This document shows positions 14,489-34,564 of a DNA stretch of 64,000 bases, piece after piece. This DNA is from Candidatus Shapirobacteria bacterium (GTDB taxonomy: Bacteria; Patescibacteriota; Microgenomatia; UBA12405), in the NCBI GenBank assembly GCA_041661765.1, contig JBAZTV010000001.1:71755-135754 (forward strand), read 5' to 3'. Both the position numbers and the translations under genes were made by a program. Below the pieces are notes generated by a model. The model was not told where the DNA came from and searched no databases. It was given only the letters and a program-made list of their open reading frames with translations. Every line of letters begins with the position of its first letter. The stretch's first letter is position 1.

Positions 14489-17400
14489 TTACAATCCAGT
14501 TGTATCTAATGTCGCTCCTACTTCTGTTGGTGTTGGTGTCAGTGTTGGTGTTGTTCCTCCAATATCCATTTTCAATAAAATCTGATCCAATTGCGATTTA
14601 GTAATACATGTTTCATTATTTTCTTCACCTACACATAAATTCTTAGTTTGAGTTTTATCAGTTACAATCTTTGGAGTAATTATTTCCACTCCGGCCACCA
14701 ACCGATCAGTTATTATTTCCGATAAATCGGTTAAAACTAAATTATCATTCTGCCACATCAATTCATCCAAAATTTGTTTTGAAAAATCAGTTGCATTTTC
14801 ATCAACCCCTGGCAATAAATCAGCAATTTTAGTTCCAGTTCCCAAACCATTTTTAATAAACATTAAAACCTGACCTGTCTCTTCACCCTCAAAATCGCTC
14901 ATCGCCGTTCCAATAATCGCTCCCGCTTTAGTCGCTTTCATTGCCACCCCTGGGGTCGATGACGAAGTTAGGGGATCACCCGCCTTAATTGGTCCATTTT
15001 CAGTATTCACTTTCACTGGTACTCTTCCCGACAATGCCACCGGTACTGATTTTACCCCTTCATCATCCACTTCTCCCATTATTACCCCCGGTCTCAAAGA
15101 AATTACTCCAAAAACATTATTATCATATGCCTTTTGGCTTTTTTTAACCCCCGCATTTAAGGTTGAATCTAAGCTCACCACATCTCCTGGAGCCATAGAA
15201 TTATCATTAGTTGAATAAAGTTCTGCCAAGTCTGCTCCCGAGGCCGCCACTTCAATTATTGTCATCATTATTTTTGGTACCGTATTTGGAGTTGTGGCAG
15301 TACTAGTCAGAGCACAAATAGTGTAAGCCTGAGAAGAAGTTGTATTTGGACTATCAATAAAACTAAAACCAAGATAACTGTCGACAGGGGAATCAGATGT
15401 ATGGCTTCCAGTTGTCAGTAAAGTTAAATCAGAATCAACTTGTGTTCCACCACAACCAGATACTCCTCTTCGAACTCTAAAAGTATTTGTTTCAGTATCA
15501 TTTGATGTCATAGTTACCTTAATTAATCCCGTAATTAAAATCCTATTACTGACAGATGATGGTGTAATTGCCGGGGCAGTTCCTTGAAGAATATTGGTTT
15601 CACCAATACCAAGAGTGTCAATAGTATTATCCACTATACTAGCGCTTTTTGCCGCTCCACCAGATCCGGTAGTATCACAATCTTTCCAGACACTATTTTC
15701 ATAACATCTAAATTTATTAGTAGAAGAATTGTAATAAGTGGCTCCATTTATTCCAGTCGGATCACTAGTTCCATTATCTAGCACTAATAAATCTGGTGCC
15801 GTTGTTCCACTGTTCCCAATAACCACTTTTCCGCTGGAATTCGTTCCACCAACCGCAAAAGTAATATTTCCACTACTAGCTTGAATAGTATTTGTACTTA
15901 TTCCACCATTAAATGTTTGCAGTCCAGTCCACACATTCGATGATCCCAAATTCAAAGCCACTGTGCCTGTGCTACCTAAAGAAATTGTTCCTCCGCCACT
16001 TAACCCTATCCCAACTGCCACAGTCAGCGAACTATTAACCAAACTAGTGTTAGTCAGGCCAGTAATTGTATTATTACCACCATCAATTGTTTTACCTGTA
16101 AATGTTTGAGTTTGTCCCACAAAAGCAAAAGTGTCATCTATGGTTAAACCTGGAATAGTGGCAATTCGACTAGTCGATGGAGCAATTGCTGATATGGTTG
16201 TTGTGTTATTTGTCCCTAAAGATAATTGATTTGTTGTATTAAAAATATTCAAAGCACCAGCTGGGTCCAGTCTCATTTTTTCACTTCTAGTAGTCGAACC
16301 TAAAGGTGTCACAATAAAAGATAAATAAGTTCCCCGGTTAGTGGCAGTAAAATTTTCTCCAGCAATGACTTGAAATGCTCCTGAACTACCTAAAACTCCT
16401 AATGGAAAAGTTGTACCATCATAACCGCGACCGCCAAGTGAAGCTAATTTATCATCTGTCTGGACTGCCAATGGAGCACTTTCCGTTCCTCTAGCCTTTC
16501 TGCCGACTACTCCTGGTGAATAAACATCATTACTGTATTTGGTCACATATAAAAAATCATTCTGAGAAATTAATTCAAATGGGCCAACAGGGTTAGTCGT
16601 CCCAATTCCCACAAACCCATTATTCATAATTACTATTGCTGTATTCGCGCCACTATCACCCACATTAAATTTTGTATTTATGCCGGTAGCATTATTTCCC
16701 GACAGGGCATTGTTACCAGCAATAGTTATTGTTCCATCTGCAATTGCACTACCAATAATCTGAGGCGTTAAAATCGAAGTTGTAAAAGTCGGGGAGGTAG
16801 ATAACACCAAAGCTGAACCACTCCCAGTCGTTGAATTACCCAAAGCCGTCACAGTTCCTGAAGTTGGTAAAGTTAAAGAAGTCGGCCCAGTAGTATTAAA
16901 GAAAAGCCCATTATTTAAAGTGGATAGGGGAATTTGTCCTGAAGCATCAGGTAAAGTCCAAGTTCTACCAGCCGTTAAATTAGCTTGGGTAATTATTCCC
17001 TGATAAGAAGTTGCTCCACCGTTCTGTCCAGGCGCAATTTTGATCGAATCATCAGTCACTGTATTAGATAAAAATTGCATTCCATTACCACTGCCAGTTT
17101 TAGCCGTAATACTACCTGTTCCACTTCTTAACTCAATACTGGTACTAGTTGTTGAATTTCCAATCGCAATAATATTAGAGGCATTTCCTGTTCCAATGTT
17201 AACCGTCATCCCCCCATTGCTGGCAAATAAATTAGCTGTTCCAGTTTGATTAACCCCCCCAATATCAAAAGTTCCAGTTGTTGTAGAGCTACCAATGGAA
17301 TAATTTGAAGAAGCAGTACCTTCTAGAGAAAAACCACTAGTTCCAACAAATAAATTTAACGAAGTATCACCAGTATTATTACCAATATTAATAATTTTTT

Positions 17401-20047
17401 CATTTGGACTATTGCCAATATTTATACCCCCATCCCCAGAAATAATATTAATTGGTTGATTAGCAGCAATATTACCAATTGTTACGGCGCCTAAAGCAGT
17501 TGTGTCAAAAATAGTATTATTTTGCGCCACCACCTTAAATGGATTAGCTGTTGATCCCGCTTTTGTACTTACTCCTAAAATATATTGAGAACCAGTTCCG
17601 TTTGTTGCAGCTGTATTTTCCCCAAAAGTAAAAGCCGTTTTGCCATCAGTCGTTAAACCCCAATTCCATATTTGAGCAAAATCATTACTATTAATAGTGT
17701 TCGCCGCAGTTGCTGCCGTTATATTACTCAAAATTGAAATTCTTGCTCCACATCCCCAGCTAGAAGTGCTACTATTCCATGCCAAAACTTGACTATTTGA
17801 GCAAGTTGTTATTAATGACAACCCAGAATTATTTTCTAAACCACCAGTTGAACTAAGTTGTATTGCTGAACCAGAAACCTTATCAGTGGTAGTAATTGTT
17901 GCCAAATTATTATCAGTTATGCCCGCAGTTCCCGATAAATTTGAATTAGTTAACCCAGTAATCGTATTTCCGATCGCTGTTATCGTTTTATTAGTTAACG
18001 TTTGAACTGTATCAATCATCACCACTTTATTCCCAATCCTAATTCTCGCCGCACTACTTCCCACATCAGACACAATAAATTCATCAGAAGAAACACCAGT
18101 AGATCCAAATTGTAATTCCACTATTGATGACACTGACGGAGTTTGGTCTGACTCTTCTATTGTCAAAGAACCACCACCCCCAGAGTTATCTGCGTCGCAA
18201 GCCCAACCACCAGAAGCTGTCCATTTTAGCAATTGACCGTCTGAACAAGTGCGAATAAGAGATAATCCTCCACCGTCAGATAGTAGTCCACCATCTAAAT
18301 AAACTGATGGTGTTCCGCCGGCAATATCCGATCCGCAAGCCCAACCACCAGAAGCTGTCCATTTTAGCAATTGACCGTCTGAACAAGTGCGAAGCAAAGT
18401 TAAACCGCCGCTGTCGCCAATTCCACCATTAGTATTCAATTGAACGGCTGAACCGGAAACTTTATTAGCAGTCACAATCGTCGCTAAATTAGCATCAGTT
18501 ATTCCCGCACTTCCCGATAAATTTGAATTTGTTAACCCAGAAATAGTATTACTTCCAGCATCAATAGTTTTATTTGTAAATGTTTGAGTTTGACCAACAA
18601 AGGCAAAAGTATCATCTATAGTTAAACCTGGAATTGTCGCAATCCGACTGGCATTTGGGGCAATCGCCGAGATGGTGGTGGTATTAGTTGCTCCTAAAGA
18701 CAGCTGATTTGTCGTTGTTGTGACGACCAAGCTATTAGTTAAATTAGCTCCATTAAAAGTTGGGTTGGCTAAAACATCAATATTTTGAATTGTATCTACT
18801 GCCCCATTTATTACCAAAAAATTAACGGCATCAAAAGAGGCCATTCCCTTAATCACATTAGTTGCATCAAGCCCTGCTATTTTTACAGTTCCACCCAAAG
18901 CTACTGGCGAACCGCTAATCCCAATTCCTGTTCCAGCCACCGCATTCACATTAATGCTATTATTTGCTAATTGCGAATTATTAATACCAGCCGACCCTGA
19001 TAAATTACTGTTGGTTAAACCAGTAATAGTCGTTGGTGTAACACTAATTACGCTTCCGTATTGATCTATTTGAAACACTGGAATTTGAGTAGCAGATCCA
19101 TAAATTCCAGGAGTGGCCACCGACACAAAAGATAAACTTAATGTTCCACCCAAACCCACTGTACCACCACCCTGTAAACCACTACCAGAAAGAGTTTCAA
19201 TAGTTATAGATGAATTAGCCAATTGTGAATTTGTAATACTCGCTCCAACCGAAAGATTGTTAGTCGTCAAACCAGTAATCGTATTATTGCCAGCAGCAAT
19301 GGTTTTATTTGTCAAAGTCGCCCCAAAATTATTAAACACAAAACTATCATTAGTACTCATCGCTGGAATGGTTACGATTCTATCTGCAGTTTGGGTATTA
19401 GCATTTATAGTAGTTTTTGAACCACTAACTCCCAAATTTAATTGGTTAGAGGTAGTAGTCATATTTAAACCATTGTTAATAGTCACATTATTAAAAGTTT
19501 GCAGACCCGTCCAAACATTAGACGCACCTAAATTCAATGCTAATGTGCCTCCTTCGTTTCCTGTCATCATTAATCCGCCTCCACCAGTGGCTCCCGCCAC
19601 ATAATTTCCCGAAGTATAAGTTCCTAAAACCACATCATTCCCATGCCAAACCCCAGTTGTAATCGTTCCTAAAGTTGACACATTAGTCGACCCTACCCAA
19701 GTTAATAAATCAGCACTTCCGCTGTCATCTCCACACACCCAATCTGTTCCGTTAAATTTTGGTATTTGTCCATTAATACAACTATTACTCGCCCATTTAA
19801 TAAAAGTTATTCCGCCATCAGTAATTTCTACCCCGCTTGAACCCACCGTCAACCCACTCCCAGTGGCTGTCGAAATTGTCACTGGCGGTGTCACTGTACA
19901 ATTTGGGTTAGTCGGTAAACAACTTGGAGTTAATGTTTCTCCTGGAGAATATAACGCCGTCGCTTCAATCTGCTTAGTAAAAACCAAAAATAATAAAACT
20001 AAAATAAATAAAGGGTATATATTAAAACGCCCCGCCTTCAATAACAT
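14489..20047 (-). CDS. Giant (1852-aa) secreted repeat-rich surface protein, G/T/S/N-rich
   Basis: N-terminal signal peptide MLLKAGRFNIYPLFILVLLFLVF. Repeated roughly 75-aa modules (TNQLSLG..IATIPGLTIDDTFAFVGQTQTFT.KTID.G.NTISGLTNSNLSG) and a duplicated CSDGQLLKWTASGGWAC unit. Confidence 0.75.
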   Translation of the reverse strand: MLLKAGRFNIYPLFILVLLFLVFTKQIEATALYSPGETLTPSCLPTNPNCTVTPPVTISTATGSGLTVGSSGVEITDGGITFIKWASNSCINGQIPKFNGTDWVCGDDSGSADLLTWVGSTNVSTLGTITTGVWHGNDVVLGTYTSGNYVAGATGGGGLMMTGNEGGTLALNLGASNVWTGLQTFNNVTINNGLNMTTTSNQLNLGVSGSKTTINANTQTADRIVTIPAMSTNDSFVFNNFGATLTNKTIAAGNNTITGLTTNNLSVGASITNSQLANSSITIETLSGSGLQGGGTVGLGGTLSLSFVSVATPGIYGSATQIPVFQIDQYGSVISVTPTTITGLTNSNLSGSAGINNSQLANNSINVNAVAGTGIGISGSPVALGGTVKIAGLDATNVIKGMASFDAVNFLVINGAVDTIQNIDVLANPTFNGANLTNSLVVTTTTNQLSLGATNTTTISAIAPNASRIATIPGLTIDDTFAFVGQTQTFTNKTIDAGSNTISGLTNSNLSGSAGITDANLATIVTANKVSGSAVQLNTNGGIGDSGGLTLLRTCSDGQLLKWTASGGWACGSDIAGGTPSVYLDGGLLSDGGGLSLIRTCSDGQLLKWTASGGWACDADNSGGGGSLTIEESDQTPSVSSIVELQFGSTGVSSDEFIVSDVGSSAARIRIGNKVVMIDTVQTLTNKTITAIGNTITGLTNSNLSGTAGITDNNLATITTTDKVSGSAIQLSSTGGLENNSGLSLITTCSNSQVLAWNSSTSSWGCGARISILSNITAATAANTINSNDFAQIWNWGLTTDGKTAFTFGENTAATNGTGSQYILGVSTKAGSTANPFKVVAQNNTIFDTTALGAVTIGNIAANQPINIISGDGGINIGNSPNEKIINIGNNTGDTSLNLFVGTSGFSLEGTASSNYSIGSSTTTGTFDIGGVNQTGTANLFASNGGMTVNIGTGNASNIIAIGNSTTSTSIELRSGTGSITAKTGSGNGMQFLSNTVTDDSIKIAPGQNGGATSYQGIITQANLTAGRTWTLPDASGQIPLSTLNNGLFFNTTGPTSLTLPTSGTVTALGNSTTGSGSALVLSTSPTFTTSILTPQIIGSAIADGTITIAGNNALSGNNATGINTKFNVGDSGANTAIVIMNNGFVGIGTTNPVGPFELISQNDFLYVTKYSNDVYSPGVVGRKARGTESAPLAVQTDDKLASLGGRGYDGTTFPLGVLGSSGAFQVIAGENFTATNRGTYLSFIVTPLGSTTRSEKMRLDPAGALNIFNTTNQLSLGTNNTTTISAIAPSTSRIATIPGLTIDDTFAFVGQTQTFTGKTIDGGNNTITGLTNTSLVNSSLTVAVGIGLSGGGTISLGSTGTVALNLGSSNVWTGLQTFNGGISTNTIQASSGNITFAVGGTNSSGKVVIGNSGTTAPDLLVLDNGTSDPTGINGATYYNSSTNKFRCYENSVWKDCDTTGSGGAAKSASIVDNTIDTLGIGETNILQGTAPAITPSSVSNRILITGLIKVTMTSNDTETNTFRVRRGVSGCGGTQVDSDLTLLTTGSHTSDSPVDSYLGFSFIDSPNTTSSQAYTICALTSTATTPNTVPKIMMTIIEVAASGADLAELYSTNDNSMAPGDVVSLDSTLNAGVKKSQKAYDNNVFGVISLRPGVIMGEVDDEGVKSVPVALSGRVPVKVNTENGPIKAGDPLTSSSTPGVAMKATKAGAIIGTAMSDFEGEETGQVLMFIKNGLGTGTKIADLLPGVDENATDFSKQILDELMWQNDNLVLTDLSEIITDRLVAGVEIITPKIVTDKTQTKNLCVGEENNETCITKSQLDQILLKMDIGGTTPTLTPTPTEVGATLDTTGL
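16082..16235. repeat. Intragenic ~155-nt repeat (copy 1 of 2), roughly 85% identical by eye to 18560-18715
   Basis: Direct nucleotide-similarity comparison inside the giant ORF. Confidence 0.7.
18197..18393. repeat. Tandem duplication of a 138-nt unit encoding TCSDGQLLKWTASGGWAC
   Basis: The near-identical 57-nt core gcaagcccaaccaccagaagctgtccattttagcaattgaccgtctgaacaagtgcgaa occurs at 18197 and again at 18335. Confidence 0.8.
18560..18715. repeat. Intragenic ~155-nt repeat (copy 2 of 2)
   Basis: Matches 16082-16235 (tcaat.gtttta..tgtaaatgtttgagtttg.cc.acaaa.gcaaaagt.tcatctat.gttaaacctggaat...). Confidence 0.7.
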
Positions 20048-20082: not shown

Positions 20083-20583
20083 TTATTTTTTCTTTTTAGA
20101 TACGATAATATCTATGATAGCCAAAATCGCCACCAAGCTGATTACTCCCAACAAAATAAAAAAATAAGTTTTTAATTCCTCATCTTTTCCCGCCACTACA
20201 TGAAAACTAGTCAACACTTCTTCAGCTAAGTTTTCATAATCACTTATTTTTACATTTAAGTTATAAAATCCAGTTTCAGAACTTTCTGGAATCACAATAA
20301 AATCTAAAAATTGAGCTTGTGTTTCTACTGCTTTTAAAACTTGTGATTGGGCTATTACTATTCCATCCTTAGTCACTTCATAATTCAATCGCAAATCCTT
20401 TCTTTGTGGATTTTCTGGATATTTAATATCTATTTCAAAATAAAGTCGGTCACCAGCCTGAATTTCAGTATATTTTTCTGAAATATTTGTTGACACACTC
20501 AAAGCCCTGGCATATGGCGCATTAATAAACATTTCTACATAAATAAAAACAACACAAATTACTTTAATTATCTTAACCATCAT
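20083..20583 (-). CDS. Small secreted protein with C-terminal TM anchor and basic tail (module A; paralog of 25218-25742)
   Basis: Signal peptide. Conserved core YPENPQRKDLRL.Y...VLKA.ETQ..F.D...IPES...G.Y is shared with its paralog. Ends ...LAIIDIIVSKKKK. Confidence 0.6.
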   Translation of the reverse strand: MMVKIIKVICVVFIYVEMFINAPYARALSVSTNISEKYTEIQAGDRLYFEIDIKYPENPQRKDLRLNYEVTKDGIVIAQSQVLKAVETQAQFLDFIVIPESSETGFYNLNVKISDYENLAEEVLTSFHVVAGKDEELKTYFFILLGVISLVAILAIIDIIVSKKKK

Positions 20584-21079
20584 GACGAATATTAATTAAA
20601 AAACTTAAAATTGAAAGATAAAGAAGTATATTGTAAAAAGCAAATAAAACCAAATTTGTATTATAAATAATAATCCTAAATGGTATAAATAAAGATAAAA
20701 TATTTAAGTTAAAAAAAATAATAGAGCATATAAAAAACATATAAAATAATAACGAGTTAATCTTTTTCTTATTAATATAAAAAAACATTACCGGGGCCAA
20801 TATTAATAAAAAATTAATATAATAAACCCAATCGATAATATTTAGTGAAAAATATAACATAAAAATATCAAGGAAAATCCTTATTAAAACTACAAGATAG
20901 GTTAAAAATATAAAAACTATTTGTTTTTTATCAGCTTTTTTAAATAATCCCACTACCAATAAACCCATCATCACAATTGTTAAAAGGACACAAATAAACA
21001 AAACACTTAGCTCTATATTTTGGTTAATATTAAACATTATCGTTTTTTTATTAAAATAATTAAAATCCATAAAGAACAT
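20573..21079 (-). CDS. Small 4-5 TM membrane protein (module A; counterpart of 25723-26208)
   Basis: 168-aa hydrophobic ORF. Occupies the same operon position as its module-B counterpart. Confidence 0.5.
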   Translation of the reverse strand: MFFMDFNYFNKKTIMFNINQNIELSVLFICVLLTIVMMGLLVVGLFKKADKKQIVFIFLTYLVVLIRIFLDIFMLYFSLNIIDWVYYINFLLILAPVMFFYINKKKINSLLFYMFFICSIIFFNLNILSLFIPFRIIIYNTNLVLFAFYNILLYLSILSFLINIRHDG

Positions 21080-21297
21080 ATTGCTAGAAGTGATTCAGAC
21101 ATAAACCAAGCTCTTTGATCATTAATGTTATATAAATTTAAAGCAACATTGATACAATAAGAAAGACTTATTGTAAAAAAAGGCAAAAAAATTCCCATTT
21201 TTTTTGAACGAATAATATTCAAAGAAGCTAGCCACATTAATACAATTGCTGACATCAACACAATAACTATTGTTAAAAAGTTTAAAAATATTGTCAC
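21037..21297 (-). CDS. Small 2-3 TM membrane protein (module A; paralog of 26195-26461)
   Basis: Shares LMWLASLNI../..KKMGIFLPFFTISLSYC with MIWLSSQAM../KKMVIPFVPFFMIGLAYC of the paralog. The true start may lie downstream of the 43-nt overlap. Confidence 0.5.
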   Translation of the reverse strand: MTIFLNFLTIVIVLMSAIVLMWLASLNIIRSKKMGIFLPFFTISLSYCINVALNLYNINDQRAWFMSESLLAICSLWILIILIKKR

Positions 21298-23123
21298 AAC
21301 TTCATTTCCTTTTTAAATCCATAAAAAATTAAAAACAAACTCACAAATTCTATAGTTCCCAATAGCAGCCAAAAATAAAGAGGAAAAGGTTCAAAATTAT
21401 TATTATATTCTTCAAAAAAAACTTGCGTTAATTTATCAAACAAAAATAAAATAGATCCCCATTGAATTAATTTTTTTGCCACCATATCTTTAAATTTAAA
21501 TGCATTAAAAAACAAATTAATTAAAACCATTATCATCACTAGATCAGGAATATCATTATAAAATGCCGCCTTTCTCCAATCATTAAAAAATGAAATTATA
21601 AAAAAGAAATAACCAATTGTAAAAATTAAAGAAAATAAAATAACATATCCAATTTTTAGTTTTATAAAAAAATTCTCAATTTTTGATATTTTTTTTATTT
21701 TTTCTTTTTCCAATAGTCTTATCTTATTTCTAATAGTTACTAAAACACCAATCAAAGAAAATAATAAAAAAATTATTATTGATGCAAACAATTCTTTATT
21801 AAAAGATATATCTAAAACTTCAGTCTCTTTAATTTCCGTTGCCAAACACCAAGGCAATCCAGTAATTAAAGAATTTGTGGCAATAGTTCTTTCATTATTA
21901 TAATTAAGTAAAATATTTATCGATGGATTTTTTATTCCAGAGAAACAATTACGGATATTGTCCGTATCAATAGTTTGAACAAACATATCAAAAGAACTAT
22001 TTCTTAATGGACTAACAAGTATTTTTTGGTCTTGACTTACTAAATAACTTTCACCAGTTTTAGCCAAACTTTCTTTATCTTCAACTATTCCAAAAACAAC
22101 ATTCATATTTTTAATCAAAGCCACATATCCTAATAATTTGTTTTGATCATACACTGGCGATAAAACTAAAAACTCTGGATACAAGTCACTATAATAATCA
22201 ATGTAAGCATCAGAAAATATAATCTCTTTTTTATTTTTTGTTTCAATAAATTTTTTTGTTAAATACCAATTTTGATTAACCGGCCAATTAAGATTTGACC
22301 CAACCTTTTCTTTAATTGTATTTGTATATACGACATAACCATCAGGATTTATTAAAAATAAATTATTAAAATCCTTTTTATTAACATTTTCTTCAAAAAA
22401 TTTTAAATTTAATTCAGATACCTCTTTAATCATTTTATAACTATCAACAGTGGCTGCTACCACCACTGCTAAACCAACTCCGTCACCAGTTTTAACGTCC
22501 AAATTAGCCATACGGACATATCTTCTTATTGGATTTTTATTCTTTTCATTCCAATTATAAAAACCATAAATATCTTGATTATTTTTTATACCCTCAATAA
22601 TCAGTTTATAAAGCTCTGGAGAATTTTTTATATCATCATAATTTTTTCCAAAAAATGTTCCACCTTCATTAAAAGAGGACACTTGCTGTTGGTAATTTTC
22701 AATCGAAATATAACCATCTAAACCAATTATTCCAGTTATAATTTTTTGAAAGACAGGATCGTTTTTAAATTCATTAAAATTTCTATTTGGATTTCTTTTA
22801 ATATAATTTTCTATTTCTTTAATAATAATATTAGACTCTTCGTCGACATTAATTTTCATTATTTGTTCACTAGAAACTAATGGCTCATCTAATAAATATT
22901 TTGTTTCATCTGAATTTGACAACTCTTTAATTTCATTATCTATAATTGAAAAATACGAATCAATCTTATTTTTCTTTAAATCAGAAACCTCAATTAATTG
23001 ATGGTATGTTTTTTTTAAGATTTGATTTTTAGTAAAAGTACAACTTATAAGCCAAAAAAGTCCACCTCCTAAAATACCCAAAAAACAAAAAATTATTATA
23101 CTTTTTATTCGACTCAAAATCAT
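21294..23123 (-). CDS. Membrane sensor-like protein: N-terminal TM, an extracytoplasmic Cache-like domain of about 430 aa, and a C-terminal 5-6 TM region with no cytoplasmic output domain (module A)
   Basis: Hydropathy pattern plus Cache-like strand motifs (GYVVYTN..., SYLVSQDQKILVSP). 609 aa. Confidence 0.5.
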   Translation of the reverse strand: MILSRIKSIIIFCFLGILGGGLFWLISCTFTKNQILKKTYHQLIEVSDLKKNKIDSYFSIIDNEIKELSNSDETKYLLDEPLVSSEQIMKINVDEESNIIIKEIENYIKRNPNRNFNEFKNDPVFQKIITGIIGLDGYISIENYQQQVSSFNEGGTFFGKNYDDIKNSPELYKLIIEGIKNNQDIYGFYNWNEKNKNPIRRYVRMANLDVKTGDGVGLAVVVAATVDSYKMIKEVSELNLKFFEENVNKKDFNNLFLINPDGYVVYTNTIKEKVGSNLNWPVNQNWYLTKKFIETKNKKEIIFSDAYIDYYSDLYPEFLVLSPVYDQNKLLGYVALIKNMNVVFGIVEDKESLAKTGESYLVSQDQKILVSPLRNSSFDMFVQTIDTDNIRNCFSGIKNPSINILLNYNNERTIATNSLITGLPWCLATEIKETEVLDISFNKELFASIIIFLLFSLIGVLVTIRNKIRLLEKEKIKKISKIENFFIKLKIGYVILFSLIFTIGYFFFIISFFNDWRKAAFYNDIPDLVMIMVLINLFFNAFKFKDMVAKKLIQWGSILFLFDKLTQVFFEEYNNNFEPFPLYFWLLLGTIEFVSLFLIFYGFKKEMKL

Positions 23124-23127
23124 AATT

Positions 23128-24201
23128 CTATTCCGATGGTAAATAGTTAATAATTTTCGAATTAATCAAAATTACACTTGGAATATTTTCTTGTTTTAAT
23201 CCAAGACTTTTAGCTCGAGCCAAATTCAAATATCGTAAACCTTTTTCGGTTGCTTTAAATTCAAAACTACTAGGAAATTTACCATCAATTAGGATTGCTC
23301 TAGCTAAATCTCCAGCCTTTCTCCCTTGTTCTTCAGATGATACCTCAACTGAAAGTAATACCCCATCTTCAACCACAAAACCCCAAAAAGTAGTTTCCGG
23401 AATTCCACTATTTTTTATTAGCCATTTTATTACTTCTGTCTCTGACACACTCTTATTATTTTCATCCACCAAACCAACCATACTAAAATTCATAATCGCA
23501 TTTACTTTTTTACCTTTATATTCCAAAATTTTCTTCTTATATTCATTGAAAGTATTAACTCGATCCCATCCAATAAATTCGATTTCTGGAAAATTAGTCG
23601 TTTGTTTTTGAATTCTTTCCATCACTACTTTCCATTGTGATGCATCTTGTGAGATCACTCCAATTTTTTTTATTTTATTGGGATATAAAGATTTTAAAAA
23701 TTCAATCGTTTCTATAAAATGTTCTCTTTCCAAAACTCCAGTCACATTTTTAGTTTTATCATAACCATATGTTTGTGGATCTTCATTCACTCCCGAAAAA
23801 ACTATCGGAATATTTGTATTAATATATTTTAAAATCGCCATTTGTGCTCCATCATCAGTGGCATAAATTAGGTCTGGTTTATATTCATCAATCATTTTTA
23901 TCGCTTCTTCAGTTGCTAATCTTTTATGTTCCACCGAAACATCCCTCAATTCATCCAAGTCAAACTCCTTTACTTCTATAATAATTCCATCTTTTTCAAA
24001 AACATCTTTAAAAGCTTTTATGTTTTCTGTAATTAAAGGAAAATCTGAGTGATAGCTGTTTAACCAAAATATTTTAATTGCCCTATTTCCTCCTCTAAAT
24101 TTATATGGACTTCTAAAAATATAATAAGAGCTAAAAATTAATCCAATTATTACTATCACAACAATAATTATTAAAAAATTTTTTTTAATTATTTTTTTCA
24201 T
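23128..24201 (-). CDS. Membrane-anchored periplasmic substrate-binding protein (ABC_sub_bind-like)
   Basis: N-terminal TM, then a two-lobed alpha/beta binding fold (...IYATDDGAQMAILKYINTNIPIVFSGVNEDP...). Confidence 0.45.
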   Translation of the reverse strand: MKKIIKKNFLIIIVVIVIIGLIFSSYYIFRSPYKFRGGNRAIKIFWLNSYHSDFPLITENIKAFKDVFEKDGIIIEVKEFDLDELRDVSVEHKRLATEEAIKMIDEYKPDLIYATDDGAQMAILKYINTNIPIVFSGVNEDPQTYGYDKTKNVTGVLEREHFIETIEFLKSLYPNKIKKIGVISQDASQWKVVMERIQKQTTNFPEIEFIGWDRVNTFNEYKKKILEYKGKKVNAIMNFSMVGLVDENNKSVSETEVIKWLIKNSGIPETTFWGFVVEDGVLLSVEVSSEEQGRKAGDLARAILIDGKFPSSFEFKATEKGLRYLNLARAKSLGLKQENIPSVILINSKIINYLPSE

Positions 24202-25228
24202 CTAATTTATTGTTTATTAAAAGTAATATAAAAATAAATCCTTGAATTAATACTTGTATCAAAATTGCCCATAAATAATCTTTTTTTTGTTGACTGAAAT
24301 CTTTTAAGCGATTACTCTTATTAGTCACTGTAATTAATAACCACTGGTAATCATCATTAAGATTTTCATTAATTGTTTTTGATCCTTCATATAATTCAAA
24401 ATTACTTATTGTTGGGTTAATACAGCGATAAGTAAAAAATTGCTCATTAGTTTCTTGGCGTCTCTCATCACATTTAGTAATTAAGTCTTTGGAGGCAATC
24501 GGATAGTCAACAAAAAAATTATTATTTTCATTTTCGGATAAATAACCAAATTCTTTATTTTTATTAGGGTTAGCCAAATAAAAACCATCCTTATCAATTA
24601 AATAGGTCGTTTCTCCTTCTCTTCGTGATCTTCTAATACTATCTAAAAAATAATTGGCATAAACTTTAACTAAAATTATGCCCTTTAATCTATTTGTCTT
24701 CTGGTCAAAAATTGGAGTGGCATATTTTAAAACTGGAATTTTTTTTTCCAAAGTTAAAGGAAAAATATAAACCTCTCCTTTTTTTAAATTTTTTAATAAA
24801 TCAAAACAAGAATTATCGTTTTGCTTATCATTAGAATCAGAGATAATTTGTCGTGTTTTTCCATCAAATTCAGCCATTAATAAAACTTTTTTATCACTAT
24901 TTATATAACTTATTTGGTAATAAGCCTCACTCTGATTTAAAAATTCTAAAAAATCATTTTTAATATTATTAATTTCAGCCGAGTTTGTACTTATTTTTTG
25001 AAATTCAGATAATTTACTTAAAAATAAAAGATTATCTGCCGCCCCAGATGGAAAATTATTAATTTCAAAATAAGTGGTATTTAATCTTTGGTCAATTATA
25101 TCTAAAGCATCAGCTTTAATTTTTATATTTTGTTGCCTAGATTGTTGGTAATAAAATACCGCATTAAAAACCATCGATATTATTAATAAAATAAAAATCA
25201 AAAATAATAAAGACTTTTTATTTTTCAT
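24185..25228 (-). CDS. Double-TM Cache-like extracytoplasmic sensor protein without an output domain
   Basis: N-terminal TM, a periplasmic domain of about 280 aa (YYQISYINSDKKVLL, GEVYIFPL), and a C-terminal TM. 347 aa. Confidence 0.45.
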   Translation of the reverse strand: MKNKKSLLFLIFILLIISMVFNAVFYYQQSRQQNIKIKADALDIIDQRLNTTYFEINNFPSGAADNLLFLSKLSEFQKISTNSAEINNIKNDFLEFLNQSEAYYQISYINSDKKVLLMAEFDGKTRQIISDSNDKQNDNSCFDLLKNLKKGEVYIFPLTLEKKIPVLKYATPIFDQKTNRLKGIILVKVYANYFLDSIRRSRREGETTYLIDKDGFYLANPNKNKEFGYLSENENNNFFVDYPIASKDLITKCDERRQETNEQFFTYRCINPTISNFELYEGSKTINENLNDDYQWLLITVTNKSNRLKDFSQQKKDYLWAILIQVLIQGFIFILLLINNKLDEKNN

Positions 25229-25742
25229 TTTTTTTCATTCTATAAATCATCCAAAATTCAATAATAACCAAAACATCCACAATTCCGATTGCCACTCCTA
25301 AAATATAAATATATTTCATCAAATCAGCTTTTCCTTTAACTACTCTAAAATCTGCCGAAACCTCTTCGTTTAAATTTTCATAGTCTTGAACCTTGTTGGT
25401 AATAGTATAGGTTCCCACCTCCAAAGATTCAGGTATTGTCATATAGTCCATAAAAGAAGATTGAGTTTCAATTGCCTTAAGAACCTTACTTTCACTAACA
25501 ATTTCATCTCCATTTTTAATTTGGTAAGTTAATCGTAAGTCTTTTCGACTAGGGTTTTCTGGATATTTTACTTCCAATTCAAAAGTAAGCCGGTCTCCAG
25601 CTGTTATTTCTAAATATTTTTCTGGAATATGGATAACTAAATTTAATGCCAATACTGATTTACTAACCACCACTACAACCACTATTAATCCCAAAATCCA
25701 CATAAATCCAAACAAAACTTTGTTATTTATATTCAGGTTCAT
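25218..25742 (-). CDS. Small secreted protein with C-terminal TM anchor and basic tail (module B; paralog of 20083-20583)
   Basis: Signal peptide, the YPENPSRKDLRLTY core, and a C-terminal ILGVAIGIVDVLVIIEFWMIYRMKKNEK. Confidence 0.6.
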   Translation of the reverse strand: MNLNINNKVLFGFMWILGLIVVVVVVSKSVLALNLVIHIPEKYLEITAGDRLTFELEVKYPENPSRKDLRLTYQIKNGDEIVSESKVLKAIETQSSFMDYMTIPESLEVGTYTITNKVQDYENLNEEVSADFRVVKGKADLMKYIYILGVAIGIVDVLVIIEFWMIYRMKKNEK

Positions 25743-26208
25743 TTTGAAATTTAATTAAGACTGCTAATATTAAAAAATATAGATCAATTACTGTTAATAA
25801 AGATAAAAACCCTGCCAATAACATCAACAAATTATTCCCAGTATTAATTTGAATAGTAAAAACTATAAAATTTAGGATTATCAATCCTATTCCGATTAAA
25901 ATCTCTGTCGGTCTAATAAATTGTCTAAAAACCGAAAATAGTCGAATATAAAGCCAAACTACTACTATGTTTATAGTAGTAAAAACAGAAAAATCGATCA
26001 TTCCTGGCCATCTAAAAAGAATAATAAATCCATAAGTCAGCAATAAAATTATCGAAGAAATAACCAAACTAAAAAACATTGATAGTAATATTCTTGCTTC
26101 TTTGTATTTGAATTGGAAAGATAATAATATTCCAAATAAAGTCATCAAAATAATTCCACTCCCTAAAAATAAGGATATTATTATAGTATCCAAATTAGTC
26201 AGAAACAT
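25723..26208 (-). CDS. Small 4-5 TM membrane protein (module B)
   Basis: 161-aa hydrophobic ORF. Confidence 0.5.
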   Translation of the reverse strand: MFLTNLDTIIISLFLGSGIILMTLFGILLSFQFKYKEARILLSMFFSLVISSIILLLTYGFIILFRWPGMIDFSVFTTINIVVVWLYIRLFSVFRQFIRPTEILIGIGLIILNFIVFTIQINTGNNLLMLLAGFLSLLTVIDLYFLILAVLIKFQNEPEYK

Positions 26209-26461
26209 ATTTTTTTATAGTAAAAACAAATAATCCAAAACTAATCAATAAAAATAAGTCTTTAAAAAACCAAAAAATATTAGTCAAAAGAAAATAAAAA
26301 GAAAATACTGAGGCAAAACAGTAAGCCAATCCAATCATAAAAAAGGGGACAAAGGGGATTACCATTTTCTTCTCCATCATTGCCTGTGACGACAACCAAA
26401 TCATTAATATTGCCAACATTAAATCTAAAAAACTTCCAAAATATAATAATAAATTGCTCAT
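26195..26461 (-). CDS. Small 2-3 TM membrane protein (module B)
   Basis: 88 aa. Paralog of 21037-21297. Confidence 0.5.
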   Translation of the reverse strand: MSNLLLYFGSFLDLMLAILMIWLSSQAMMEKKMVIPFVPFFMIGLAYCFASVFSFYFLLTNIFWFFKDLFLLISFGLFVFTIKKYVSD

Positions 26462-27537
26462 AATTTTAAATTTTTCTTAAAACTAAAAAATAAAGATAAA
26501 AATCCAGTAATACTCAAAAATCGCATTAAAACTAAAATCAAATTTCTCCAAATACTCGATAATTCATATGCCTGCCTATATTCATTAAAAAATATGGTCA
26601 ATAAAAAATAAACACCCAAAAGTAATGATCCAATTTTAAGATATTTACCTTTTTTAAGCGGGATCATCACAATTAATAGAAAAAATGAAAGTGTCGCCAT
26701 TCCCCATTCCAAAAAATATGTTTCTAGAGAAAAATAATTAACTCCTCGAGTCACTAAAGTCACAATAAAACAATAAGAAATTCCTGCTGCCCCACAAAGA
26801 ACAAATAGTAACATTTCTTCTATACTAAAAGATGAAGAAAAACTAGAAAAATATCCACTTAAAAAAGTAATCACTAAAACAAAAAGCATTCCCCAAAAAA
26901 TATATCGTTTAAGTATTTGTTGTGCAGGTATATCAATATTTGTCACCTTTTCTGTTTCTGAAAATAAACACAAAGGCAAACTGCCTGGTACTTTTTGATA
27001 TGTCCCATAAACCGATCTATTTCCTTCATCGATTCCAGTATAAAATTTTCGACTAAAATTATTACCTTTAAGACATTGATCCAAAAGTTCATTGCGAATA
27101 ATTTTAGTTGTCGCCCGTTCATTACTGATATCAAATTCTTTTTGGGCTGTTAATAAATCTCCTTTGTCATTTACTAAATAAGCATTAAGTCGAAGTGTTT
27201 TTTGTTGTTCTACATACAATAATTTTCTTAAATCATCCATGGAAATTGCCTGTCCTCCACTAATTATATTAATAGTATTAATTGATCCTTCATTTTCCAC
27301 AAATTCCAACGGTTCACTTTTATCAGCTAAAAATTGAGAAATAGAATTTTCTTTTTCGTTAGAAAAATTTGTCAAAGTTTTTTCAACTTGATCTATTAAT
27401 TTAATGTAATCTTGGTTAAAAAAAAATTGAATACTTATCATCGCAATCACCAATGCTACCGCAAAAGAAGTTATCGTAAAAAATTGTGATTCATTTATTT
27501 TTTTCATTTCCTTCTCCTCACCAACCCAATAATCCAA
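26458..27537 (-). CDS. Membrane sensor-like protein: N-terminal TM, an extracytoplasmic domain of about 170 aa, and a C-terminal 5-TM region (module B)
   Basis: 359 aa. Same architecture as 21294-23123 but shorter. Confidence 0.5.
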   Translation of the reverse strand: MDYWVGEEKEMKKINESQFFTITSFAVALVIAMISIQFFFNQDYIKLIDQVEKTLTNFSNEKENSISQFLADKSEPLEFVENEGSINTINIISGGQAISMDDLRKLLYVEQQKTLRLNAYLVNDKGDLLTAQKEFDISNERATTKIIRNELLDQCLKGNNFSRKFYTGIDEGNRSVYGTYQKVPGSLPLCLFSETEKVTNIDIPAQQILKRYIFWGMLFVLVITFLSGYFSSFSSSFSIEEMLLFVLCGAAGISYCFIVTLVTRGVNYFSLETYFLEWGMATLSFFLLIVMIPLKKGKYLKIGSLLLGVYFLLTIFFNEYRQAYELSSIWRNLILVLMRFLSITGFLSLFFSFKKNLKL

Positions 27538-30476
27538 GAAATTAAGATTAATATGATTCCACCTCCAATAATAATCATCAGTAGTTTGTTCTCCAAGAAA
27601 TTAGTTGTAGGGGAGGAAGTAAAATCTCCAACTTCAAAATTTTGTTTAAATTCATCTTTAATATTAGTGTTATAAAGTGTGTTTAAGACTAATGTGTATT
27701 TACCTTTATCTAATAACAATCCTTCAAATGTTTTATTAAATACTCCTTCAGTTTGTATAGAGGTATTGTCAATTGATCTATAATATTCTTTTCCATTTGC
27801 ATCAACTATAGTAAATGTCATTTCTACTGGAGTATCTTCTTTTCCAAAACTTACAAATGTTACTCTGGCAGCTAATTCAGATGCTTTAGTTATTTGTGTT
27901 TTATCTACAATTAGGGCGATATCAAAAAGTTGAGATGGAATTTGAGAAACAGGCACAAATCCTTCAGCTGGAGTTGTTGTTTCACCAGTAGTACCTCCCG
28001 TAGTTGTTTCTATTATTCTTCCTCTTGGTGTTGCTGACACCTCATTCGACCAATCACCTGGCATACAATCATTAATTGCTTTTATCTTGAAATAATATCT
28101 AGTTCCACCAGATAATCCTTTGATTGTATAACTAGTAGTATCAGCATTTCCTACATTTGGATTACCGTATTCAATCGATCCAGAAGAAGTTCCATAAGCT
28201 ATTAAATATTTAGTTACTGGATTACTTGCTTTTGACCAAGTTAAAGTCACACTATTATCTCCATTAATTGTATTAGTAATAATTGGTGTCCCTCCTGGTT
28301 TAGTTGCACTACATGCTGGTGCTGCCCAACCAGTACTACTAATTGAAGAGGTGGAAGTTGAAGTAGAAGGTGAGGAGGTTGGGGTAGGGGTGGGTGTTGG
28401 AGTTGGTGTTATTGTTGAAACAGAACTGAAAACAATAAATTTAGTAAAATGTCTCGTCCATACCACTAAATCATTACCAACATCAATTTTACAATCTTCA
28501 TCCACCCCCAATGTCGCACCAGAATCACTCCCACAGGTCGTTGTAATTTCAGTGAATGGTATAGCACTTCTGAGATACCCCACTCTATTTCCCGCTTGAT
28601 CTGGAAACAATATCCTTACTGCTTTATCAAAAGATAATTTAACATCAGTCACTCCAACATCAATTGCCGTTTCCACAGTCCTCGTTTCACCCGAAACCTC
28701 AGGTATCGTCGTCGATATTGCTGTTGGAGCCAACATCATTCCATCCCAACCAATATCTGTACTTGATATTGAAGTTGAAGCCTGAATAGATATTCCCACA
28801 CCATTAACATTATTTGCCAAAATATTTACCTCTGGTAATGTTCCTGATCCACTAGAAATAAACCCACTAAAATCAATTGTTGGACTGGTTATTCCACTAT
28901 TTATTGTAATATTAGCCGGTGTAGTTGAATTTGTAATTACGGCTAAATATTGATTATTACTGCTGATTGTGGCTGTACCACCCACTTGATTAACCACTAA
29001 ATAATTTCTTGAATTTTCAATGTAATATGGAATAAAAGTTGCATTTCCATAAATTAATGATTTTGTAACCTGATAATTTTTACTTCCCCACCAATTATTT
29101 ATAGCACTTACTGTATCCGCAGTATTATTTCGTAAATTATAACTAGTATTACTAAATATCAAATTTTCAGTTATTTCGTATCCACCAATTGAAGTTCCCA
29201 CATCCAAAAAAATTCCTTTATCCCATCCGGAAATATTATTTCCTGTTATCGATGTTGTCACCGCCCCATCACCCAGATCAAAAATAGCGGATGAATTACT
29301 AGTCCCATCACCAGTTAAAGTATTTTCCAAAACACTCACTCCAACAGTATGGCTATTTGGAGTAAATCCCTCCAAACTAATACCACCACGAGGAAAACCA
29401 CTCCCAATTGTATTTAAATATAGTGTTGAATTATTAATATTTGCCTGTTCATTATCTAAATAAATTCCTGTTCCATAAGTATGTCCCGAACCAGAAATGT
29501 CATTATTTTGAATATTCACTTCTGAACTATATCTATCAGTAATTCCAAAATCACAATTAATAATCGTGTTGTTTTCAATCACCGCTCCATCTTGAATATT
29601 TATTACCTCTATTGCCGTATCCCAATCAGCAGTATTATAGTGTAGATCACTAACAACATTTCCCGAAATTGCTGTAACTGTTGCCCCATCATAAACTTTA
29701 ATTCCACCTTGTCGTCGCGTAGTTAAAATTCCACCCCCATTAATTACATTATTATGAATATTTACCGTTATATTTGTGGTTGTTTCTCCAATTTGAATCC
29801 CGCTACTTAAAAAATTAGAGGCCGTACAACCACTAATTTCAACTGCCTTTGCCGAAGTAGTATCAGCATCCGCCCAAAAAGCATGTATTCCACTTTTCCA
29901 CGATTCAGACCCAATCGGTATTACTACATGATCATTATGTATACTACTAACATTCTCAATTACCCCGCTAGTGTTATAAAAAAAGACTCCCCCAAAACGC
30001 ATATCGGGTATTGTTGAACCGAACCAATCTACTCTGTCAGTTGATAACGAAGATGCATCTACTGTTAAATTCTCTACTGTAACCGTACTTCCTATATCAT
30101 TAACCACAATTATCCCCGTTGTCATCCCGGATGGTGTTGTTACATATACATCCAACGAATTTGGTTTAATAACTGTAGTTCCTCCAGTTCCATTTAATAC
30201 TATCGCTTTAGTAATATTAACCTGTTCTACATATTCACCAGTCGCAATATTAAGAGTATCACCATCAACAACTCTAGTATCACCTATGGCATATTGAATA
30301 GTTTGAAAAGCGTTTGCTCCGCTTGCTGTTCCATGAGACCCATCATTAGTTCCACTCGGGTCAACATAATAATCAGTTGCCATTACTTGTTTAGGTTTTA
30401 TTAATAAACCAAACCTCAACAAATTTATTCCAATCAGACACCCAATCAAAAATAAGCCAAAACATTTTCTGTTCAC
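27504..30476 (-). CDS. Giant (990-aa) surface protein: right-handed parallel beta-helix (pectate-lyase/PbH1-like), a (TP)n linker, a fibronectin type III domain, and a C-terminal TM anchor with RRRK tail
   Basis: N-terminal ATDYYVDPSGTNDGSHGT...FQTIQYAIG typical of beta-helix proteins. Repeated NN.I.N/G rungs. TPTPTPTPTP linker. FN3 region (LTWSKASNPVTKYLIAYGTSSG...GTRYYFKIKAIN). Ends GGGIILILISWIIGLVRRRK. Confidence 0.7.
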   Translation of the reverse strand: MNRKCFGLFLIGCLIGINLLRFGLLIKPKQVMATDYYVDPSGTNDGSHGTASGANAFQTIQYAIGDTRVVDGDTLNIATGEYVEQVNITKAIVLNGTGGTTVIKPNSLDVYVTTPSGMTTGIIVVNDIGSTVTVENLTVDASSLSTDRVDWFGSTIPDMRFGGVFFYNTSGVIENVSSIHNDHVVIPIGSESWKSGIHAFWADADTTSAKAVEISGCTASNFLSSGIQIGETTTNITVNIHNNVINGGGILTTRRQGGIKVYDGATVTAISGNVVSDLHYNTADWDTAIEVINIQDGAVIENNTIINCDFGITDRYSSEVNIQNNDISGSGHTYGTGIYLDNEQANINNSTLYLNTIGSGFPRGGISLEGFTPNSHTVGVSVLENTLTGDGTSNSSAIFDLGDGAVTTSITGNNISGWDKGIFLDVGTSIGGYEITENLIFSNTSYNLRNNTADTVSAINNWWGSKNYQVTKSLIYGNATFIPYYIENSRNYLVVNQVGGTATISSNNQYLAVITNSTTPANITINSGITSPTIDFSGFISSGSGTLPEVNILANNVNGVGISIQASTSISSTDIGWDGMMLAPTAISTTIPEVSGETRTVETAIDVGVTDVKLSFDKAVRILFPDQAGNRVGYLRSAIPFTEITTTCGSDSGATLGVDEDCKIDVGNDLVVWTRHFTKFIVFSSVSTITPTPTPTPTPTSSPSTSTSTSSISSTGWAAPACSATKPGGTPIITNTINGDNSVTLTWSKASNPVTKYLIAYGTSSGSIEYGNPNVGNADTTSYTIKGLSGGTRYYFKIKAINDCMPGDWSNEVSATPRGRIIETTTGGTTGETTTPAEGFVPVSQIPSQLFDIALIVDKTQITKASELAARVTFVSFGKEDTPVEMTFTIVDANGKEYYRSIDNTSIQTEGVFNKTFEGLLLDKGKYTLVLNTLYNTNIKDEFKQNFEVGDFTSSPTTNFLENKLLMIIIGGGIILILISWIIGLVRRRK

Positions 30477-33895: not shown

Positions 33896-34564
33896 TCAAG
33901 TAGCAATTTTATATCCCAAGCTATGCACCGATTTAATCATCTTAACTCCAAACTGTCGATCAATTTTATTTCTTAAATAATTAATATGAACATCAACAGT
34001 ATTAGTCAACTGATTTGTATCACTTTCCCATACATGCTCCAAAATCATACTTCTCGTCAATACTTTACCAGCATTACGCATTAAATATTCTAATAATCTA
34101 AATTCCTTCAATCTAAGTTCAATTCTATCCCCTTTATATTCAGCTGTATTAGAAACAGTATCTAAAATTAAACCATTAACTGATAATTTATCAGATGAAA
34201 AACCATTTGGAGCCCGTCTTATTAAAGCTTGTAGCCTGGCATGAAGTTCTTCAAAACTAAATGGCTTAGTTAAATAATCATCCGCCCCTAAATTAAGAGC
34301 ATTAATTTTATCCCTCGTTTCTGATTTTCCTGTTAGCATTATAATCGGTGTTTTAATTTCACCTTCTCTAATATTTCGGCAAACTTGAAATCCATCAATA
34401 TCAGGCAAAACCACATCCAGTACTATTGCATCATAATCATTATCAAACACCAAATCCTCTCCTTTTTGCCCAGTATAGGCTATATCGATTGCATAATAAA
34501 CTTTTAACATTTCCTTAATCGAACTTGCCGTTTGTCTTTCATCCTCAATTAACAAAATTTTCAT
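33896..34564 (-). CDS. OmpR-family response regulator
   Basis: Receiver residues (DE...D...T/K) and a C-terminal winged helix. Paralog of 52019-52687. Confidence 0.85.
   Translation of the reverse strand: MKILLIEDERQTASSIKEMLKVYYAIDIAYTGQKGEDLVFDNDYDAIVLDVVLPDIDGFQVCRNIREGEIKTPIIMLTGKSETRDKINALNLGADDYLTKPFSFEELHARLQALIRRAPNGFSSDKLSVNGLILDTVSNTAEYKGDRIELRLKEFRLLEYLMRNAGKVLTRSMILEHVWESDTNQLTNTVDVHINYLRNKIDRQFGVKMIKSVHSLGYKIAT

Follow-up and report, generated by a model that had tools for sequence, protein, structure and literature searches.

A doubled membrane-protein operon of a gene cluster found in CPR bacteria and DPANN archaea

What kind of system is encoded by a tightly packed run of membrane-protein genes, eight of which form two modules of the same order, in a Candidatus Shapirobacteria genome of the candidate phyla radiation (CPR)? 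We addressed this question for a stretch of 64,000 nucleotides (nt) of that genome (contig JBAZTV010000001.1, positions 71,755 to 135,754, the window), in which a reading based on the letters alone, here called the sequence-only reading, had pointed to a tandem duplication of a four-gene module. We found that positions 20083 to 30476, where all annotated genes lie on the minus strand, form a single, translationally coupled operon in which a gene cluster found in CPR bacteria and DPANN archaea is present in doubled form. It encodes a conserved set of membrane proteins in which the only recognizable domains are extracellular binders of small molecules, and from which a cytoplasmic module is absent.

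A doubled operon and its relatives in CPR bacteria and DPANN archaea

The operon comprises 11 genes, in the order X, the four genes a, b, c, and d of unit B, Cache, SBP1 (a solute-binding protein [SBP]), and the four genes a to d of unit A. Nine of the 10 junctions overlap by 4 to 43 nt and the remaining one is a gap of 4 nt, which is the pattern of translational coupling. All 10 open reading frames (ORFs) named in the sequence-only reading were present where it had placed them, on the minus strand. Scans for promoters and terminators gave no more matches than expected by chance. In transcription order, with lengths in amino acids (aa) and transmembrane abbreviated as TM, the genes are as follows.

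27504..30476, minus strand: X, 990-aa secreted surface protein, first gene of the operon
26458..27537, minus strand: B_a, 359 aa, short a subunit
26195..26461, minus strand: B_b, 88 aa, three TM helices, N terminus out and C terminus in
25723..26208, minus strand: B_c, 161 aa, five TM helices, divergent member of the c family
25218..25742, minus strand: B_d, 174 aa, signal/TM, 8-strand arrestin/MG-like beta-sandwich, TM, basic tail
24185..25228, minus strand: Cache, 347 aa, TM-dCache_1-TM, cytoplasmic domain absent
23128..24201, minus strand: SBP1, 357-aa ABC_sub_bind solute-binding protein with an N-terminal TM anchor
21294..23123, minus strand: A_a, 609 aa, TM, double-Cache ectodomain, TM, 4-helix aTM domain
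21037..21297, minus strand: A_b, 86 aa, three TM helices
20573..21079, minus strand: A_c, 168 aa as listed, five TM helices
20083..20583, minus strand: A_d, 166 aa, beta-sandwich and TM anchor, last gene of the unit

We compared 107 related loci and ran iterative profile searches over 115 loci. A scan of one genome per GTDB species yielded 30 loci, 18 labeled as DPANN archaea (Woese-, Pace-, and Nanoarchaeota) and 12 as CPR bacteria, to which JGI metagenomes added 78. For one archaeal locus (L001) the assignment is more than a binning label, since the same contig carries the ribosomal-protein genes uL3-uL4-uL23-uL2-uS19-uL22. All 54 genes encoding aTM, the C-terminal membrane domain of a, for which enough downstream sequence was available were followed by b and c. 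After c, d came directly in 52 units, SBP2 (a second solute-binding protein) was inserted before d in one, and d was undetected in one. Both modules of the window match the aTM, b, c, and d profiles and have the same order as these 52 units. A single unit can be written as (X) (Cache) (SBP1) (a b c with or without SBP2) d, a full unit consisting of X, Cache, SBP1, a, b, c, and d and a minimal one of X, Cache, and d. In the window, X belongs to unit B, and Cache and SBP1 belong to unit A.

Between the window and a Woesearchaeota locus, identity was 56% for SBP1, 54% for d, 38% for b, 35% for Cache, 34% for a, and 24% for c, the last not being significant. In a neighbor-joining tree of d, a weak method applied to a short protein, bacterial and archaeal sequences were interleaved. 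Together, the identities and the tree suggest repeated transfer between the two domains of life. The remainder of the window is bacterial in character, as its OmpR-type regulator and MacB/FtsX/HlyD efflux system show.

Several subunits also occur as natural fusions, namely, the a ectodomain with d (662 aa), d with Xc, the C-terminal module of X (404 aa), X with aTM (1,326 aa, L032), and c with a PotD-like SBP2. By contrast, no protein fusing aTM to b or b to c was found among 70 aTM representatives. Operon junctions, strict synteny, and these fusions bear out the earlier view that the genes encode a multisubunit membrane system and not unrelated ORFs. Neither an ATPase nor a cytoplasmic domain is encoded in any locus, and clustering of the unassigned neighbor genes revealed no cytoplasmic partner conserved across lineages. 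Full-text literature searches on CPR, Patescibacteria, and DPANN in combination with Cache, dCache, CARDB, or SBP brought up no description of the cluster.

Some loci depart from the single unit. Nanoarchaeota contigs (L016, L109, L021, and L103) carry three cluster units within about 20 kb, one of them with the a ectodomain fused to d (662 aa), which shows that some DPANN genomes have expanded the system in an array-like manner. Two further genes recur, mostly in minimal loci, and are absent from the window: one for a protein of about 240 aa with a TM helix and a helical ectodomain, usually just downstream of d (L015, L055, L065, L073, L081, L084, L086, L091, L098, and L107), and one for a protein of 125 to 263 aa with a TM helix and a small ectodomain, just upstream of X (L012, L015, L029, L042, L045, L053, L056, L085, L087, and L092). 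Both may be extra subunits.

The relatedness of the two modules of the window varied from subunit to subunit. Their products had been described as clearly homologous, which BLASTP supported for d (52% identity over 132 aa, E 7e-47), b (35% over 72 aa, E 2e-11), and a (24% over 291 aa, E 1e-5, spanning the membrane-proximal ectodomain and the C-terminal TM block), but which was overstated for c, where the similarity was not significant (E 2.0). B_c was nevertheless recovered in the c family by iterative profile search over the 115 loci (jackhmmer domain E 4.5e-10, residues 7 to 157), and the B_c family aligned collinearly with the c family over 149 columns (hhalign, 81% probability, E 1.2e-5). 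Since a control comparison of b with c, marginal and involving the first three helices of c, also scored E 6e-5 (65%), much of the weight for the c pair rests on position and topology. Homology of the two c proteins is thus indicated at the profile level only, along with identical position, size, and topology. The view that the resemblance between the modules is merely compositional fails, since the gene order is reproduced in more than 100 independent loci, and chance similarity is excluded by the E values for d, b, and a together with the conserved synteny.

As for the proposed duplication of the whole module, it proved to be real but old. The layout X-B-Cache-SBP-A also occurs in relatives whose B_d is only 59 to 63% identical to that of the window, and A_d is closer to archaeal d (54 to 56% identity) than to B_d (52%), which indicates that A and B are old paralogues. 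By sequence, they differ in their ectodomains, with a full double Cache predicted in A and a truncated one in B, and these differences fit functional specialization better than a recent copy.

Subunits and predicted topology

The a subunit consists of a TM helix, an ectodomain, a second TM helix, and four further TM helices. For a and for the other proteins, the topologies described in the sequence-only reading agreed with hydropathy and with the helices of AlphaFold2 (AF2) models. The four C-terminal helices, about 138 residues, constitute a family of their own, which we call aTM (residues 472 to 609 of A_a, nt 21297 to 21710; residues 230 to 359 of B_a, matching the aTM profile at 7.9e-35). 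A profile search of 1.84 billion representative proteins returned 70 aTM members, 39 of them at an E value of 1e-10 or below. In all 70, aTM was either free-standing (112 to 180 aa) or at the extreme C terminus, and none of them had an output or cytoplasmic domain. The most conserved motifs, FFQGWxNAxFYDDIPD and LQEY, fall in outward-facing loops. A broad homologue search with the aTM alignment gave only four matches, with candidates dominated by low complexity, and an internal-repeat test found aTM and c, and likewise b and aTM, to be unrelated.

Double-Cache character of the a ectodomain was indicated by its relatives. A_a and B_a themselves had no Pfam match, while homologues 46 to 84% identical to A_a carry PF02743, 32 of the 38 long aTM proteins match dCache_1, and the NCBI name of the protein identical to A_a is "cache domain-containing." A fold search with the model of A_a found the ectodomain to resemble the ligand-binding domains of TlpA, PctD, and PctA, consistent with tandem PAS/Cache, at TM-scores of 0.1 to 0.36 and from a poor model; LuxPQ (2hj9) was among the weak matches. 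In B_a, the ectodomain is reduced and Cache-like, the profile of the a ectodomain (aEcto) covering only its hmm positions 4 to 46 and 308 to 409, so that the membrane-distal module is missing. The probable true start of B_a is the ATG at 27507, which overlaps the stop of X.

Of the two small membrane subunits, b has three TM helices, its conserved features being a Trp in helix 1, a basic K/R loop on the inner side, a PFF motif in the second helix, and W...E where helix 3 begins on the outer side; B_b matched the b-family profile at 2.4e-26. The five-helix c subunit is poorly conserved except for E-(Y/F) where helix 1 ends on the inner side, the inner WKxINKKLF, and the C-terminal YFxxxxFLI, and A_c matched the c-family profile at 1.7e-34. 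The family alignment suggests that A_c starts at Met15 (nt 21037), the sole invariant column of the c family. Six of 35 units have c fused via one extra helix to SBP2, a PotD/PotF-like polyamine-binding protein, which in other units is a separate gene before d. SBP2 scored E 2.5e-41 against Lmo0810 (4gl0) and 1e-37 against the annotated spermidine/putrescine binder 4eqb.

The d subunit is an 8-strand arrestin/MG-like beta-sandwich with an N-terminal signal/TM, a C-terminal TM anchor, and a basic tail. At 90% identity, its family falls into about 258 clusters, none of them annotated and one with a representative labeled Nanoarchaeota, and an alignment of 100 sequences has 19 invariant residues; A_d is 54 to 60% identical to d of Woese- and Nanoarchaeota and other CPR bacteria. 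Among the conserved motifs, YPENPxRKD, ETQ, and DYE would lie at the membrane-distal tip and PEKY close to the membrane, as judged from how loops alternate in an up-down sandwich and not from coordinates. In Pfam, d had no CARDB match at an E value of 1 or below, and only weak matches to Wzt_C (0.0029) and MG2 (0.0066).

The X protein consists of a signal peptide, a parallel beta-helix (NosD/para_beta_helix), an fn3 domain (residues 738 to 815; Pfam, 8e-12), and Xc, a beta-sandwich followed by a TM helix and an RRRK tail (residues 841 to 990, nt 27507 to 27956). Its TM-plus-RRRK anchor had been noted to resemble that of d, and the likeness in fact exceeds the tail, residues 841 to 990 being homologous to d (jackhmmer, 5.9e-26; hhalign, 94%, E 1.4e-7). 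Only profile methods showed this relationship, which a direct BLASTP of B_d against the 990-aa protein had missed. In other loci, Xc, the C-terminal 150 residues, recurs at the ends of otherwise variable surface proteins of about 350 aa that head the cluster. The N termini of X proteins were mostly unassignable, with PG_binding_1 in 3 of 23 and fn3, Big_13, or cohesin in a few. X is present in 17 of 35 units and absent from unit A.

Pfam and NCBIfam scans of all 10 module proteins assigned only the two encoded between the modules, confirming what had been read from their sequences. The Cache protein lies above the gathering score of dCache_1 (PF02743; E 4.1e-12, 46.6 bits versus a cutoff of 45), with further matches to HK_sensor_dom_bact (3.7e-11), the chemoreceptor sensor 4wy9 of the PDB (1.2e-4), and the aEcto profile (1.8e-51), and it has orthologues in both CPR and DPANN loci. 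SBP1 matched ABC_sub_bind (PF04392; E 8.6e-13, 48.6 bits versus a cutoff of 25.9) and, far below the cutoff, the TrpX-like NCBIfam model (1.4e-10); it is 56% identical to its Woesearchaeota orthologue. No Pfam or NCBIfam match placed aTM, b, c, or d in a well-known family; members of the c and aTM alignments gave only scattered subthreshold Pfam matches. Profile searches of PDB sequences with aTM, b, c, and d had no match even at an E value of 10.

Applied to the alignments, the positive-inside rule placed both termini of a inside, and the N terminus of b and of c outside and their C terminus inside; the fusions of c to SBP2 need, and possess, the one extra helix. Every soluble domain is thereby predicted to lie outside the cell, namely, the dCache_1 domains of Cache and a, the SBPs, and the sandwiches of d and of the X C terminus. 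The membrane part consists of the four helices of aTM, three of b, and five of c, plus single anchors.

Possible roles of the complex

These features led us to propose that all of the proteins assemble into one hetero-oligomeric complex, in which aTM, b, and c would form a core of 12 helices. Its outer-face loops, rich in aromatic and acidic residues (FFQGWxNAxFYDDIPD and LQEY of aTM, W..E in b, and D.Y in c), would dock the tethered binding domains. Since d comes last in every unit and shows the strongest conservation of all subunits, it may serve as a common structural adaptor, while the homology of d and Xc suggests that Xc is a d-like anchor which brings variable X proteins into the same assembly, pairing with d or substituting for it. 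The Cache and SBP domains would capture small amine-type nutrients (amino acids or polyamines) and pass them to the aTM-b-c core for ATP-independent uptake or gated permeation, and specificity would differ between paralogous units such as A and B.

Delivery of small molecules to a membrane component is suggested by the fusions of SBP to c and by the presence of PotD-like, ABC_sub_bind, and dCache_1 domains, and the absence of any output domain argues against classical signaling. We thus tentatively favor a modular complex that captures, and probably takes up, amine nutrients through its Cache and binding-protein domains. We assign this proposal a probability of roughly 0.35; the function remains speculative. 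That the complex represents a new class of ATP-independent permease or ligand-gated channel fed by Cache and binding proteins is more doubtful.

A number of observations weigh against uptake. No transporter signature was found, aTM, b, and c matching no Pfam, NCBIfam, or PDB family, nor did we identify an energy-coupling element. Conservation is lowest in the membrane subunits (c, about 24%, not significant), which is unusual for a translocation pathway. Minimal X-Cache-d loci lack aTM-b-c, so that d, Cache, and X can exist without the putative pore unless the core is encoded elsewhere in the genome. Finally, the window has no PotD-like SBP2, and the AF2 model of A_a, built from 16 sequences, was poor, with a predicted local distance difference test score (pLDDT) of 60.7.

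The main rival to uptake is a platform for surface display or adhesion, which we consider possible, if on balance doubtful. Here, the d and Xc anchors would oligomerize in the membrane and hold the variable X proteins (beta-helix, fn3, PG-binding, or cohesin-like), with Cache and SBP as co-receptors in host recognition and aTM-b-c as a scaffold and not a pore. This would suit the homology of d and Xc as sandwich-plus-TM modules, the variable, binding-type N termini of X, the minimal X-Cache-d loci that do without the core, the stronger conservation of soluble than of membrane parts, the multicopy arrays (L016 and L109), and the giant secreted repeat protein that follows the operon in the window. 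However, PotD-like, ABC_sub_bind, and dCache_1 domains bind small molecules and are not adhesins, an SBP fused to the five-helix c is hard to explain under pure display, and X is missing from unit A and from many other units, only 17 of 35 having one. An accessory role in signal transduction appears unlikely. Cache and SBP would then sense a ligand and signal laterally, through contacts between TM helices, to a separate intramembrane-sensing histidine kinase or another effector, and in the window, as in L037 and L049, an OmpR-type response regulator and a histidine kinase are indeed encoded a short way upstream and read in the same direction. This pair, however, is confined to Shapirobacteria-like loci (9 of about 107) and absent from archaeal ones, and no member of the aTM family has an output domain.

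The sequence-only reading had raised two further ideas, a sorting or anchoring machine and a split receptor, neither of which was upheld. A machine akin to sortase, exosortase, or archaeosortase, processing the C-terminal TM helix and basic tail of d and X, is very improbable. Both proteins do end in a hydrophobic helix followed by K/R, superficially like sorting signals, but aTM, b, and c contain no invariant Cys, His, Arg, or Ser candidates, the Cys of b, which could be taken for a catalytic residue, is not conserved in the b family, and neither Pfam nor NCBIfam gave a sortase or exosortase match. The only conserved feature resembling a cleavage motif before the anchors was a single Tyr, invariant at the helix start (Tyr144). 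Derivation from one ancestral polytopic protein, be it a split 7TMR-DISM-type receptor or a 12-TM transporter, has been largely refuted, as has the notion of merely hydrophobic ORFs of similar composition. The helix count does sum to 12, and there were isolated, subthreshold matches to 7TMR-DISM_7TM (E 0.066 in 1 of 17 c proteins and 0.0052 in 1 of 19 aTM proteins). Yet a ends inside where b starts outside, and the same holds for b and c, so that these subunits are not pieces of one broken chain; their incompatible topologies fit the total absence of aTM-b and b-c fusions, and aTM is always C terminal or free-standing.

Neighboring genes, known systems, and significance

Around the operon, the region is rich in genes for surface proteins. 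A 1,852-aa secreted, repeat-rich protein with an N-terminal signal only (14489-20047, minus strand) starts 35 nt after A_d; its homologues occur after the cluster in close relatives only (8 loci, L006 among them), and the NCBIfam scan, the sole family search made with it, gave no match. A 1,401-aa subtilase (Peptidase_S8; 37791-41996, minus strand) that combines a fervidolysin-like prodomain with three fn3 domains also belongs to the large secreted proteins of the region. Between positions 20001 and 28000, GC content is 0.235 to 0.28 over the membrane-protein genes versus 0.36 to 0.40 in the flanking genes for giant surface proteins, which probably reflects the Phe/Ile/Lys-rich composition of TM segments and not a foreign origin.

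Upstream of X, the histidine kinase (32354-33715, minus strand) has about five to six N-terminal TM helices and no ectodomain, as in the intramembrane-sensing type, and is preceded by the OmpR-type regulator (33896-34564, minus strand). A 604-aa protein without predicted TM helices is encoded directly upstream of X (30556-32370, minus strand). Its N terminus has squalene-cyclase/TED-like alpha/alpha-toroid repeats (TED_complement, 8e-7; TIGR01787, 4e-5), and the Asp-rich YDDFLDGDGD and NDDAHDWEDD in its C-terminal half are reminiscent of class I terpene/prenyl synthases; it had no match among PDB sequences. The order regulator, kinase, 604-aa protein, and X is shared with L037 and L049 and not with archaeal loci, and four further loci (L035, L075, L091, and L105) have homologues of the 604-aa protein close to the cluster. 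In the Shapirobacteria-like L036 (1399-3249), WxL and WxLIP_PGBD genes, which belong to a Gram-positive cell-surface complex, precede the cluster instead of the kinase and regulator.

The cluster resembles several known systems in part. The dCache_1 chemoreceptors and histidine kinases (PctA, PctD, and TlpA) have the same TM-ectodomain-TM layout and belong to the same family as Cache and, at the level of the aTM family, the a ectodomain, but here HAMP, MCP, kinase, and GGDEF domains are absent, and the place of the output is taken by the novel four-helix aTM or by nothing. With ATP-binding cassette (ABC) importers, the cluster shares an SBP of a recognized family (ABC_sub_bind) and lacks the permease and the ATPase, neither ABC_tran nor a BPD-type permease being present in the operon or in the conserved part of the more than 100 loci. 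Tripartite ATP-independent periplasmic transporters (TRAP-T; DctPQM) and tripartite tricarboxylate transporters (TTT; TctABC) likewise combine SBPs without an ATPase, small, poorly conserved subunits of four to five TM helices, and tethered or fused SBPs. The cluster differs in lacking the large 12-TM subunit DctM/TctA and any sequence relation to these systems (Pfam), in drawing its SBPs from other families (ABC_sub_bind and PotD-like), and in its additional Cache and beta-sandwich subunits.

Pairs of an SBP and a periplasmic sensor, LuxP-LuxQ and NspS-MbaA, are established signaling designs, and the SBP NspS is also PotD-like. As in the cluster, an SBP gene lies beside that of a membrane protein with a tandem-PAS/Cache-like ectodomain, but these receptors carry cytoplasmic kinase or cyclic di-GMP domains, and the cluster has none. 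Compared with 7TMR-DISM receptors, the combination of 7TM, DISMED ectodomain, and cytoplasmic output was not found beyond the single matches described above, and neither the transpeptidase Cys (plus Arg/His) nor the pre-helix signature of sortases, exosortases, and archaeosortases is present. The resemblance of d to CARDB, MG, and arrestin-like sandwiches is at the fold level only, since d has its own invariant motifs and a TM anchor. Among the closest known systems we also count the eukaryotic translocon-associated protein complex (TRAP/SSR alpha, beta, and delta with the 4-TM gamma). The alpha2-delta protein of voltage-gated Ca2+ channels is an extracellular Cache protein without an output of its own that works in a membrane-channel complex; being eukaryotic and VWA containing, with nonhomologous membrane partners, it offers an analogy only. 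Nor did the proteins resemble those of antiphage defense or phages, as PADLOC and PHROGs gave no match for aTM, b, c, or d, and no relative of d was found on IMG/VR viral contigs. The system has the defining features of none of the known systems compared.

CPR bacteria and DPANN archaea account for much of microbial diversity and lack many biosynthetic pathways, and how they acquire metabolites from their hosts is an open question. The uptake proposal suits organisms that are forced to scavenge in this way. The operon is common to both domains, with d and SBP1 about 55% identical, and would place several small-molecule-binding domains on a novel core of 12 helices, with neither an ATPase nor a signaling output. 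If it encodes a machine for uptake or gating, it would represent a new transport architecture and provide a testable handle on the nutrition of episymbionts; if it encodes an adhesion platform, it would be a candidate device for host recognition. Either way, four protein families that now lack annotation are defined, and dCache_1, the commonest extracellular sensor of prokaryotes, gains a new kind of partner.

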